Shown here: in pieces, positions 51,707-54,580 of the stretch
How positions within the stretch are numbered: position 1 is the first letter of the stretch
Layout of the letters: every line of letters starts with the position of its first letter
Source of the DNA: Escherichia coli
Lineage (GTDB): Bacteria > Pseudomonadota > Gammaproteobacteria > Enterobacterales > Enterobacteriaceae
Reading direction: 5' to 3' (one strand)
DNA: 64,000 nt
Assembly: GCF_024502345.1 (NCBI RefSeq)
Contig: NZ_JALDNN010000001.1
Notes under the pieces: model-generated
Told to the model about the DNA's origin: nothing
Seen by the model: only the letters and a program-made list of their open reading frames with translations
Databases searched by the model: none
Made by a program: the position numbers and the translations under genes

Positions 51707-51746
51707 TGCCGGATAATATAAAAAGTTATCCGGCAAATTATTTTTT
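51707..51746. terminator. bidirectional terminator between yggM and the TRAP operon
   Basis: ttgccggataa...ttatccggcaa hairpin followed by a T-run. Confidence 0.5.
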
Positions 51747-53046
51747 ACATTAGCCCTAGTAGCTGTGGAATGAACAAGGATATTTGCGGGATGTAAGTGA
51801 TCATCATCAACGCGATTAACAATGCGGCATAAAATGGCAGCAATGGTTTGATCAAATGTTGAATCTTCACACCTGAAATAGAACAACCAACAAATAGCGC
51901 ACTACCCACCGGCGGTGTTAACAGCCCAATACAAAGGTTAGCCACCATCATAATACCGAAATGTACCGGATCCATTCCCAGCTCTTGTGCAATCGGCAAG
52001 AAGATTGGTGTGAAGATTAGTACAGCCGGTGTCATGTCCATAAAGATGCCGATAATTAATAAGACGATATTAATCAGCAGCAATATGATCAGTGGGTTAT
52101 CAGAAATCCCCATCAACGCGTCGCTGATCATATAAGGAATATCAGCATTAGTCATTGCCCAGGACATGCCCACGGAAAAACCGATCAACAGTAATACAAT
52201 CGAAGTGGTAACAACCGACTCCAGAATCAGTTTGGGTAAATGGCGCCATTTTACTTCCCGGTAAATCAGCACCGAGAGAATAAATGTGTAGACAACGGCA
52301 ATTGCTGACGCTTCAGTTGCGGTAAAAATGCCGCCCAGAATGCCGCCCATCACAATGAACACCAGAAGCAAACTTGGTAAGGCATCCAGAAACGCTTTAC
52401 AGGCCTGAGCAAAGGTTGCTCTTTCTGAAAGTGGGTAGCCACGGCGTTTAGCAATAATGCCGCAGACTATCATTACCGCGAGACCCATTAAGATCCCTGG
52501 CAAATATCCCGCCATAAATAGCGATGCTACAGAAACGCCGCCAGCTGTCAGGGAAAACACAATTAACACGTTTGAGGGCGGTATCAGTAATCCAGTAATA
52601 CAAGATGAGACGTTTACAGCGGTAGAAAATGCCGGATCATAACCTTGTTTGGTCTGAATGGGATTCAGTGTGCCACCAACGGCAGCAGCTGCCGCAACGG
52701 CTGAACCGGAAATAGAACCAAACATCATATTCGCCAGGACGTTCACATGACCAAGTGAACCCGGAACCCGGCCAACCATTACCTGGGCGAGGTTAATCAA
52801 ACGTATCGCAATACCGCCGCTGTTCATCAGCGTTCCGGCAAAGATGAAAAAGGGGATTGCTAACAGGGCAAAGTTATCCAGTCCATTAGCCAGTCGCTGC
52901 GAAACAGTGATTGCCGCGATATCCCAGGGAAACATCAAAAGCATTGAAGCTACAGTGGCAATACCGATTGAGAACGAAATGGGCACACCAATAAAGACCA
53001 GCACAAAAAAACAGCCAAACAGTGTAATCGCGATATAACTATCCAT
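51745..53046 (-). CDS. TRAP transporter large permease (DctM family)
   Basis: 433-aa polytopic membrane protein; 1-bp overlap with the upstream small-permease gene. Confidence 0.8.
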   Translation of the reverse strand: MDSYIAITLFGCFFVLVFIGVPISFSIGIATVASMLLMFPWDIAAITVSQRLANGLDNFALLAIPFFIFAGTLMNSGGIAIRLINLAQVMVGRVPGSLGHVNVLANMMFGSISGSAVAAAAAVGGTLNPIQTKQGYDPAFSTAVNVSSCITGLLIPPSNVLIVFSLTAGGVSVASLFMAGYLPGILMGLAVMIVCGIIAKRRGYPLSERATFAQACKAFLDALPSLLLVFIVMGGILGGIFTATEASAIAVVYTFILSVLIYREVKWRHLPKLILESVVTTSIVLLLIGFSVGMSWAMTNADIPYMISDALMGISDNPLIILLLINIVLLIIGIFMDMTPAVLIFTPIFLPIAQELGMDPVHFGIMMVANLCIGLLTPPVGSALFVGCSISGVKIQHLIKPLLPFYAALLIALMMITYIPQISLFIPQLLGLM

Positions 53047-53558
53047 TAACTGGCCTCCTGCGCAGGTTGTTTCAGTTGTTGAATGCTTTGATTAATAAAA
53101 CACAAGGCATAAAACATCATCACCAATCCACTTAATGGCAGAATGATATATACGTATCCCATCGGTATTTGCATCGCGGCAGATACCTGTGATGTTGCCA
53201 GCGTTTTATCAATTAATTTCAGGCCACCAGTCACAATGACCGAACCGGCAAAACCTAAAATAAGAACGTTAATGACTATACTAAGAAGTAATTGCTTGCG
53301 CTTATTCAGGGCGAGAGCAAATAAATCGATAGAGAGATGTCTCTGCGCGCCGACGGTATATGCAGCACCTAATAACCCTACCCAGATCATCAAAAATCGT
53401 GCCAGCTCATCGGTTAATGTACTTGGCTGGTTAAGTACGTAGCGGCTAAATACTTGCCAGACTACGCATACAACCAGAGCAAGCATGACGGCGACAGAAA
53501 ACGCGGCAATGACGCGGTCTACCGCAAGTTTCAGGCGGTTAAATATCATTGTAAGCAT
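53046..53558 (-). CDS. TRAP transporter small permease (DctQ family)
   Basis: 170 aa with 4 predicted TM segments, located between the DctP and DctM genes. Confidence 0.7.
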   Translation of the reverse strand: MLTMIFNRLKLAVDRVIAAFSVAVMLALVVCVVWQVFSRYVLNQPSTLTDELARFLMIWVGLLGAAYTVGAQRHLSIDLFALALNKRKQLLLSIVINVLILGFAGSVIVTGGLKLIDKTLATSQVSAAMQIPMGYVYIILPLSGLVMMFYALCFINQSIQQLKQPAQEAS

Positions 53559-53593
53559 CCTGGAAAATCAGGGCCAGAGACTGGCCCGGAATA

Positions 53594-54580
53594 TTATTGA
53601 GCAGCGTTGTCGAACTTCTCTAACAAAGCAGCTTGTTTTGGATCTTTTTTGAAGTCGTCAAACAGAGGCTGAACTGCGGCACGGAATGGTGCTTTATCCA
53701 CTTTTACAATTTCACCCCCCATAGCTTTCGCCTGAGCACGTGTGTCAGCGTCAATTTTTTCCCACAATTTTTGTTGATAAGCTTCGGATTTCTTCGCCGC
53801 TGTTTCGAGGATTTGTTGCTGTTCTGGGGTTAATTTATTCCATGTTTTGGTGGAGATAACCAAAAAGTCAGGAATTGAGGCGTGTTCATCTTCAGAAAAA
53901 ACTTTGGCAATTTCAATATGTCGAGCCTGCACCCAGGAAGGCACGTTATTTTCTGCGCCATCTACTACACCTTGCTGCATCGCAGTATAAACTTCGCCAA
54001 ATGAAATTGGAGTGGGTGAACCACCCATCAGTTCAATCATGTTGATGGTGGTCGGACTTGGCTGAACACGAATTTTCAGTCCCTTAAGATCTTCTGGCTT
54101 TGTAATCGGTTTTTTCGCATAGAAACTGCGAGTACCCGCTACATAAGCTGATAAAGCAAAAAAGCCTTTGTCTTTTGTTGAGTCCATAATTTCTTTACCA
54201 ACTTCACCAAAAACAACTTTGTTGAAGTGCGCCTGATCTTTAAATAAGAACGGCAAATTATAGATAGCATAAATATTATCAAAAGACTCCAGATCACTGG
54301 CGGAACCTTTGGTCATATCCAGTGCGCCATTTTGCAACAATTCCATAGTTTCTCGCGCATTACCCATCTGGCTGCTGGGATAAATACGGATCACCATATT
54401 ACCTTTTGACAGCTGTTTTACCTCTTTCGCCAGCTCTTCAAAACTCTGATGTACAACATGACTTCTTTCCAGGTTGTGTGCTAACTTTAACGTCACTTTT
54501 TCTGCGGCGTTTACGCCAGTGCTAACCAGAGCCAGCAAGGATGCGCAGACTAATGAGCGGGTAAATGACCTCATTTTCAT
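53594..54580 (-). CDS. TRAP transporter substrate-binding protein (DctP family)
   Basis: 328 aa with signal peptide MKMRSFTRSLVCASLLALVSTGVNA; first gene of the operon, downstream of an AT-rich promoter region (54581-54893). Confidence 0.8.
   Translation of the reverse strand: MKMRSFTRSLVCASLLALVSTGVNAAEKVTLKLAHNLERSHVVHQSFEELAKEVKQLSKGNMVIRIYPSSQMGNARETMELLQNGALDMTKGSASDLESFDNIYAIYNLPFLFKDQAHFNKVVFGEVGKEIMDSTKDKGFFALSAYVAGTRSFYAKKPITKPEDLKGLKIRVQPSPTTINMIELMGGSPTPISFGEVYTAMQQGVVDGAENNVPSWVQARHIEIAKVFSEDEHASIPDFLVISTKTWNKLTPEQQQILETAAKKSEAYQQKLWEKIDADTRAQAKAMGGEIVKVDKAPFRAAVQPLFDDFKKDPKQAALLEKFDNAAQ

Follow-up and report, generated by a model that had tools for sequence, protein, structure and literature searches.

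A predicted hexuronate TRAP importer downstream of hemW in Escherichia coli: a probably ancestral presence/absence locus and candidate member of the ExuR regulon

Some tripartite ATP-independent periplasmic (TRAP) systems transport hexuronates. STM3169–STM3171 of Salmonella Typhimurium is a D-glucuronate TRAP transporter with a Kd of ~0.2 µM (PMC7660916), and GaaPQM of Agrobacterium tumefaciens figures, in a citation within PMC5812351, as a D-galacturonate TRAP transporter. The hexuronate carrier of the classical ExuR/UxuR regulon in E. coli is ExuT, a hexuronate:H+ symporter of the major facilitator superfamily (MFS). Here we analyse a three-gene TRAP operon between yggM and hemW in a 64,000-nt stretch of E. 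coli DNA (assembly GCF_024502345.1, contig NZ_JALDNN010000001.1; "the window" denotes this whole stretch). With moderate confidence, we take it to encode a high-affinity hexuronate importer that belongs to the ExuR regulon, is ancestral at the hemW position and has been lost by ~73% of E. coli.

The locus clearly belongs to the TRAP family and, by gene content, encodes a complete and intact tripartite system of the DctP/DctQ/DctM type (TC 2.A.56), and the three-gene TRAP operon of the original prediction is indeed present between yggM and hemW. Three intact open reading frames (ORFs) follow each other in P-Q-M order on the minus strand: a dctP-like gene for a periplasmic solute-binding protein (53594–54580, 328 aa), a dctQ-like gene for a small membrane subunit (53046–53558; 170 aa if counted from the first start codon, 167 aa with the start 9 nt further downstream that RefSeq annotates in a near-identical strain) and a dctM-like gene for a large membrane subunit (51745–53046, 433 aa). 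All three products match their families at full length. The DctP-like protein covers model positions 2–285 of 286 of PF03480 (E 3.5e-84) and scores 285 bits against TIGR00787 (cut-off 175), the DctQ-like protein covers PF04290 from end to end (E 3.5e-30), and the DctM-like protein covers positions 1–413 of 413 of PF06808 (E 9e-121) and scores 471 bits against TIGR00786 (cut-off 268). The DctP-like protein starts with a typical Sec-type signal peptide (MKMRSFTRSLVCASLLALVSTGVNA followed by AEK, the junction reading VNA–AEK). An overlap between the stop codon of dctQ and the start codon of dctM suggests that translation of the two genes is coupled. The gene yggM (DUF1202; 50682–51689, plus strand) flanks the dctM end and hemW (54894–56030, minus strand) the dctP end, and the 5.5 kb spanning the locus (50600–56100) are 98.7% identical to E. 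coli strain A34. A literature search by the flanking gene names or by TRAP together with ExuR found no study on a TRAP operon between hemW and yggM.

The substrate was given as unknown in the original prediction, and this can be improved to a predicted hexuronate from two sources, gene neighbourhoods in outgroups and solved relatives of the binding protein, the former being the stronger evidence. Outgroup homologues of the DctP-like protein (54–59% identity) share with it the invariant motifs TLKLAHNL, QMGxxRET, AGTRSFY and DGAENN. All seven that were sampled (Aeromonas rivuli, A. molluscorum, Pantoea sp. IMH, Gallibacterium anatis, Basfia succiniciproducens, Limnobaculum zhutongyuii and Vibrio viridaestus) are encoded in a divergent cluster in which uxaC-uxaB-uxaA face dctP-dctQ-dctM and exuR or kdgK-eda comes next. 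The uxaCBA cluster represents the galacturonate branch of the isomerase pathway, and the TRAP system is the only transporter in it, occupying the position that exuT holds in E. coli. These uxaCBA-linked systems of Pasteurellaceae, Aeromonas, Vibrio and Limnobaculum, which we name by their context, resemble the operon of the window in their P-Q-M order and in their upstream ExuR-type sites, but they are embedded in the galacturonate cluster by exuR or kdgK-eda, whereas the E. coli copy stands alone after hemW. The most likely substrate is thus predicted to be a hexuronate, D-galacturonate in the first place and probably D-glucuronate too.

A comparison of the binding protein with characterised TRAP solute-binding proteins, proposed at the outset, returned hexuronate binders among the best solved relatives (~39% identity). 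The nearest structures in a sequence search of the PDB were 4ovr, 4n15/4n17, 4mhf/4mij, 4x8r, 4n8y, 4n91 and 4xfe (E 1e-59 to 1e-68), followed by sialic-acid SiaP at ~1e-40 and true C4-dicarboxylate DctP at ~1e-32. Of these, 4OVR, 4N15/4N17 and 4XFE are presumably hexuronate binders. According to published work, 4N91 is a glucuronate binder and 4MHF binds both glucuronate and galacturonate, while 4X8R was solved with bound glucuronate and 4N8Y with bound galacturonate. The hexuronate proteins solved by the Enzyme Function Initiative (Bpro_3107, 4MHF/4MIJ; Bamb_6123, 4N15/4N17; Apre_1383, 4N91; also 4OVR, 4X8R and 4N8Y) are the best matches in sequence and fold, and they have in common with the protein of the window the DctP-family architecture and an Arg-Arg-Asn triad for the carboxylate and the sugar. 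A conserved arginine of TRAP binding proteins binds the substrate carboxylate (PMC7660916). R171 and R151 of the protein studied here are invariant in the alignments of its relatives and align with arginines of 4ovr and 4n15; together with N211 they match the carboxylate and sugar contacts R170, R150 and N210 of STM3169. Of the seven pocket residues of STM3169 and Apre_1383, N35, R150, R170, N210 and D237 have equivalents here by a numbering offset of +1 (N36, R151, R171, N211 and D238), and Q36 and E74 appear to be replaced. The N-terminal pocket loop differs from that of the solved hexuronate binders (LAHNLERSH instead of ADVHGDSF). A Foldseek search of the PDB with a predicted structure returned the same relatives and added nothing on specificity; this model, built from a 12-sequence alignment, is poor in domain II (mean pLDDT 68, residues 165–233 below 50).

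The nearest characterised functional analogue is STM3169. It is a hexuronate TRAP system of an enterobacterium, as is predicted for the operon, is unlinked to catabolic genes and acts alongside an ExuT-type MFS carrier, but it is not an orthologue, the representative S. enterica genome yielding no close relative of the DctP-like protein, and it occupies another chromosomal locus. GaaPQM, which is dedicated to D-galacturonate uptake, is alphaproteobacterial and differently regulated. ExuT is predicted to share both substrate and repressor with the operon and belongs to an unrelated transporter class; a TRAP system needs a binding protein, and a much higher affinity is expected of it. Another accessory TRAP operon is known from the B2 E. 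coli strain BEN2908, where it lies in GR 21 between ygiQ and ftsP and adjoins a GntR-type regulator and UxuB-like, YjjN-like and AllD-like genes (PMC12928451). It is at a different locus and is a different sugar-acid system from that between hemW and yggM; the ygiQ–ftsP island may correspond to the STM3169 region of Salmonella.

Regulation by ExuR is suggested by the 313-bp spacer between hemW and dctP (54581–54893). As originally described, this is an AT-rich promoter region of the operon's own, with a GC content of ~0.35 compared to 0.52–0.56 in the flanks. ExuR sites have a 3-nt centre (GT-N3-AC) and UxuR sites a 2-nt centre, and ExuR sites have been published for E. coli uxaCA, exuT, exuR and uxaB and for other Enterobacterales (PMC4494728). 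A matrix built from 50 unique published sites (10th percentile of the training set 9.5 bits, median 18) finds its best match in the whole 64-kb window at 54657–54677 on the minus strand (14.2 bits). This main operator candidate, box 3, is a GT-N3-AC palindrome (ACAAGTTGT CGG ACAGGTTAA) centred at -87 from the ATG. The next five matches all fall in the TRAP locus as well: two in the dctP promoter or shortly beyond it, two deeper in dctP and one in the dctM–yggM hairpin. A proximal operator candidate, box 4 (CAATTTGT CGC ACAAAGCA; 54637–54655, minus strand; 11.1 bits with a 5-site matrix), lies 21 bp from box 3 and reads ATAAGATGTCATACAG in other genera, and a distal ExuR-like half-palindrome, box 1 (ACAACCTGG CGC ACAAATTTA; 54720–54740, minus strand; 8.4 bits), has a core, CCAGCGCACAAAA, that is conserved across genera. 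Since the boxes are 21, 63 and 84 bp apart, all three would lie on one face of the helix. Pairs ~21–22 bp apart resemble the paired sites upstream of uxaB.

The candidate operators are conserved with the operon. In an alignment of the hemW–dctP spacer from 21 loci, which is otherwise scrambled, the conserved islands are CC(A/T)GCGCACAAAA, TGTGA, TTGTC-N-GACAA at about -87, ATGTCATACAG at about -66, AGATAT..ACCA and the ribosome-binding site. Among 30 loci, most orthologous promoters keep box 3 at -85 to -90, with scores of 7.5–18 bits where above threshold, and nearly all sampled orthologous operons, including those at other chromosomal sites, have box 4 at -55 to -79. Indeed, the boxes travel with the operon to such sites in Buttiauxella, Edwardsiella, Mangrovibacter and Enterobacillus. 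Upstream of the uxa-linked homologues, ExuR matches reach 13.5–21.6 bits, and Limnobaculum has the same pair at -88 and -66. Between boxes 3 and 4, a candidate site of the UxuR type (GT-N2-AC; GGTTAACCAATTT, 54650–54662, minus strand) is found in Escherichia promoters only. Its 13 nt are identical to a sequence in the uxuA upstream region of K-12; the 13-mer is unique in the window (0.07 occurrences expected with up to one mismatch) and, among 60 loci, is confined to the TRAP promoters of Escherichia and to uxuA. We infer from these patterns that ExuR represses the operon and that UxuR was added in Escherichia. An ExuR/UxuR consensus, AAATTGGTATACCAATTT, has the 2-nt centre of the UxuR type and gave no conserved match across genera.

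Further elements of the promoter region include a TGTGA pentamer at 54687–54691 (minus strand), ~25 nt upstream of box 3 and kept in almost all of the 21 aligned promoters. It may be a half-site for CRP and so provide catabolite control; a match to the full CRP consensus is weak by eye, and the second half-site is poorly conserved. The conserved block AGATAT(N)(A/G)ACCA (54611–54622, minus strand), ~40 nt upstream of the ATG in the 21-locus alignment, is a candidate -10 or start region, and a Shine-Dalgarno sequence AGGGAG is found at 54588–54593. The region also contains a 25-nt imperfect direct repeat (76% identity; 54663–54687 and 54726–54750, 63 bp apart). Since box 1 and box 3 each lie within a repeated module, ATAAACAT(A/G)(G/T)ACAA..., a duplication origin of the operator region is suggested. 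Two further ExuR-like matches were noted outside the promoter. One, TAAAGTTAGCACACAACCTGG (54469–54489, centre ~+101 from the ATG, 10.3 bits), lies inside dctP, overlaps codons of the invariant LKLAHNL loop and recurs at 7–12 bits in some other genera; coding constraint is the likely reason for its conservation. The other, at 51721–51741 in the dctM–yggM hairpin (AAAGTTATCCGGCAAATTA), scores 10–14.5 bits with ExuR matrices, is second- or fifth-best in the window depending on the matrix, and is probably a chance match to an AT-rich palindrome.

Several observations speak against a hexuronate importer under ExuR control. The binding protein is only ~38–39% identical to the solved hexuronate binders, and in part of the pocket GNARE replaces their GSEKD loop, with loss of the Glu; because of both the identity and the pocket, homology to solved binders alone is weak evidence for the substrate. 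By the simple +1 offset, STM3169 residues Q36 and E74 would moreover be L37 and A75 here. Neither the operon of the window nor those of other Enterobacteriaceae adjoin a catabolic or regulator gene. As to the promoter, the boxes score 7.5–18 bits, which places them in the lower half of the training sites (median 18). A single match at this level does not exceed chance expectation in 64 kb, given that the 5-site matrix reaches up to 17.8 bits in shuffled sequence. A scan of the hemW–dctP spacer for sigma-70 hexamers gave no good match, and the site lists ExuR_KPN and ExuR_ECO (supplement of PMC4494728) do not contain the operon, K-12 itself being without it.

These points leave room for a TRAP transporter of another sugar acid, such as fructuronate or tagaturonate, D- or L-galactonate, 2-keto-3-deoxygluconate (KDG) or unsaturated products from pectin, with ExuR, or another FadR-type GntR protein that has a similar GT-N3-AC operator, as its regulator. 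Such a transporter would fit with the ~39% identity to solved binders, with GNARE in place of GSEKD, with the high variability of TRAP binding pockets known from published work, with moderate operator scores, and with TGTC-N-GACA cores, which other phyla also show at GlcC2 and PdhR sites. However, in the outgroup clusters with uxaC, uxaB and uxaA the TRAP system as the only transporter would be expected to bring in the substrate at which the pathway starts, a free hexuronate, and not an intermediate. The matrices of the enterobacterial regulators DgoR and FadR gave no match in the dctP promoter, and among the catalogued enterobacterial FadR-type sites only those of ExuR (uxaB) share the TGTCTGACA core. 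We therefore regard another sugar acid as unlikely, although it is the alternative that survives best, and retain a hexuronate as the predicted substrate.

With regard to its history, the original prediction treated the operon as a strain-variable insert relative to the K-12 gene order. Adjacency of yggM and hemW in K-12 was stated correctly: in MG1655 the gap is only 154 bp and is filled by repetitive extragenic palindromic (REP) elements. The presence of the operon is likewise variable and thus not universal at the site, since it was found, at ≥80% coverage and always between hemW and yggM, in 27% of the complete E. coli genomes (1,461 of 5,426). That it is an insert was not borne out. A synteny comparison was called for originally, and a scan with one genome per bacterial species revealed the operon after hemW in many Enterobacteriaceae. 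Directly downstream of hemW and in the same orientation it is found in Citrobacter amalonaticus, C. braakii and C. sedlakii, in six Kluyvera and six Klebsiella species including K. pneumoniae, in Pseudocitrobacter, Pluralibacter and Phytobacter, and in one cryptic Escherichia lineage. Some lineages of Salmonella enterica have the identical order hemW-dctPQM-yggM-ansB-yggN-yggL-trmB, and the cryptic Escherichia locus shares with that of Salmonella the full order hemW-dctPQM-yggM-ansB. Position and orientation are the same in at least eight genera including Salmonella. The representative S. enterica genome of the scan, in which no close relative of the DctP-like protein was found, we take to be LT2, with ansB as STM3106.

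The divergence of the TRAP genes points in the same direction. Between E. coli and other genera, their identity in DNA and at third codon positions equals that of the flanking core genes; between E. coli and Salmonella it amounts to 80% and 53% for dctP and to 80% and 54% for hemW. The GC content at third codon positions (GC3) of dctM tracks the host, with 0.48 in E. coli and 0.68–0.73 in Salmonella, Klebsiella and Pluralibacter. Signatures of mobility are lacking: the ORF list contains no integrase and no transposase or insertion sequence (IS) at the locus, no tRNA gene was found within 24 kb, and the operon boundaries show no flanking direct repeats or target-site repeat. Since the site is shared across genera, the divergence is flank-like, GC3 matches the host and mobility signatures are missing, the operon is best read as ancestral at the hemW position and the K-12 state as a loss allele, on these comparative grounds. 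The K-12 state itself is more likely a deletion that was overwritten by REP elements.

The distribution among E. coli strains can be described in more detail. Carriers include O26, O111:H8, O103:H2, O6:H16, sequence type (ST) 648 and O25b:H4-ST131 strains, while K-12 and O157:H7 are without the operon. The alleles differ from the window by 1–2% (mostly 97.8–98.9% identity), about the same as the flanking genes, over varied backgrounds (ST131, ST648, O26 and O6:H16, as named by ST or serotype). Non-carriers have one, two or three REP units, with spacers of 68, 154 or 242 bp, and their empty-site alleles share one right-hand junction, which points to one ancestral deletion haplotype whose REP copy number changed later. 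The REP spacer of K-12 shows no homology to the operon ends except for one 9-mer, ATCCGGCAA. Recently disrupted copies of the operon occur occasionally, in single strains (NZ_CP024056.1, NZ_CP015229.1 and NZ_CP172819.1), one with an IS1 inside dctP and another with an IS66 that truncates dctM and with the yggM side replaced. An apparent relic allele in BS-04, with dctQ fragments in the yggM–hemW spacer, was rejected as evidence of decay, since its long C and T homopolymer runs make an assembly artefact probable. Contigs 98–99% identical to the E. coli locus are also filed under MAGs or genomes named Collinsella sp., Bacillota bacterium and Alicyclobacillaceae; mistakes in binning, or contamination, of the public assemblies are almost certainly the cause.

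The absence from 73% of E. coli including K-12 would also be explained if a metabolic islet had been acquired horizontally and inserted between yggM and hemW in some lineages. In favour of this, the GC content of the operon is ~0.44 (0.43–0.46), below that of most flanking genes and of the flanks on the hemW and ansB sides (0.52–0.56), with yggM also at ~0.445, and the empty sites hold no remains of the operon, their sequence departing from that of the occupied allele right as far as the stop codons on both sides. The low GC content counts against a purely ancestral origin; probably the operon was foreign at some earlier time and was acquired before these genera split. Such an islet is at odds with the shared position and orientation in at least eight genera, the flank-equal divergence and the host-adapted GC3, and equally with E. 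coli alleles that differ from the window by 1–2% across varied backgrounds and the missing tRNA, integrase, IS and target-site repeat. We consider this explanation largely refuted already and quite improbable, and keep to an ancestral operon lost from most E. coli. A transporter for C4-dicarboxylates (DctPQM sensu stricto) or for 2,3-diketo-L-gulonate (YiaMNO-like), to which the generic DctP/Q/M family names and weak NCBIfam matches to YiaM and YiaN might point, has next to no probability, given that these matches are far below cut-off (YiaM 38 bits vs 260, YiaN 296 vs 800), so that the operon is not YiaMNO, that true C4-dicarboxylate DctP structures match at E ~1e-32 compared to 1e-68 for the hexuronate group, that no DctBD-type regulator is present and that the neighbourhoods elsewhere are hexuronate clusters.

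The locus contains three predicted hairpins. Downstream of hemW, a hairpin at 54866–54891 (minus strand; -17.2 kcal/mol, z -6.1) is followed by the U-run CACUUCUUUU and appears to be the hemW terminator, separating hemW transcription from the TRAP promoter. Within the 35-nt spacer between dctP and dctQ, a GC-rich hairpin at 53571–53587 (minus strand; -14.3 kcal/mol, z -4.0), followed by UGAUUUUCC, may act as an intra-operon attenuator or as an mRNA stabiliser, which would yield the binding protein in excess of the membrane subunits. Between the converging yggM and dctM genes, where a bidirectional terminator had been proposed, a REP-like hairpin does exist (51705–51737, plus strand; arms TTTGCCGGATAA and TTATCCGGCAAA; -18.2 kcal/mol, z -6.5). 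Its U-run is found on the yggM (plus) strand only, and GGUAC follows on the dctM strand; it is accordingly better described as a putative intrinsic terminator for yggM than as a classical bidirectional terminator. An Rfam scan of 51400–55200 gave no match.

Gene turnover in the neighbourhood extends beyond the operon. The gene yggM is absent from the Citrobacter loci and from some Kluyvera loci and is only 33–37% identical in Klebsiella, Phytobacter, Pseudocitrobacter and the other Kluyvera loci, while Escherichia, Salmonella, Citrobacter and Pluralibacter have ansB and Klebsiella and Kluyvera do not. The region 3' of hemW is a hotspot of gene turnover.

We propose that the DctP-like secreted protein would capture an organic acid in the periplasm and hand it to the DctQ/DctM pair, which would move it inward by use of an ion gradient. 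The operon would be the enterobacterial copy of the TRAP system that is embedded with uxaCBA and exuR in Pasteurellaceae, Aeromonas, Vibrio, Limnobaculum and one Pantoea, a copy that in the Enterobacteriaceae was presumably separated from the uxa and exuR genes and placed downstream of hemW. Two or three phased ExuR-type operators over the promoter would allow repression by ExuR and induction by hexuronates, with an additional putative UxuR-type site between the ExuR boxes in Escherichia. In this way the TRAP system would serve as a high-affinity scavenger alongside ExuT as the lower-affinity MFS carrier, while ~73% of E. coli, K-12 among them, would have lost the operon and been left with a REP array.

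Pectin and host glucuronides release hexuronates, which enteric bacteria are known to use as carbon sources and as signals. Galacturonate is sensed through ExuR by enterohaemorrhagic E. coli (EHEC) and Citrobacter rodentium (PMC10990124), and STM3169, the glucuronate TRAP protein of Salmonella, is a virulence factor (PMC7660916). A wider proposal, which we put forward only tentatively and hold to be rather less probable than the importer itself, is that E. coli, Salmonella and their relatives possess an ancient and overlooked TRAP scavenger of the ExuR/UxuR regulon for galacturonate and glucuronate, kept as a long-lived presence/absence polymorphism at hemW (present in ST131, ST648 and the non-O157 EHEC O26, O111 and O103, absent from K-12 and O157). 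Its carriers might be favoured at micromolar hexuronate for gut colonisation, and the Escherichia promoter might in addition have recruited UxuR by an exact copy of the palindrome upstream of uxuA.

In kind, the operon is an ordinary accessory transporter, and its carriers include clinically important lineages. The exuT, uxaB and uxaCA operators of the ExuR/UxuR regulon are of the same type as the boxes described here, and the TRAP operon is missing from the classical regulon because K-12 lacks it. Since the hexuronate regulon of E. coli was defined in K-12 and work centred on this strain has missed the operon, a quarter of E. coli, ST131 and non-O157 EHEC among them, may possess a second, so far unstudied uptake route of high affinity under the same repressors. 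If this is true, metabolic models would be refined and part of the variation between strains in how they grow on scarce sugar acids would be explained, and the locus would provide a clean case of an ancestral presence/absence polymorphism that poses as an insertion when K-12 is taken as the reference.

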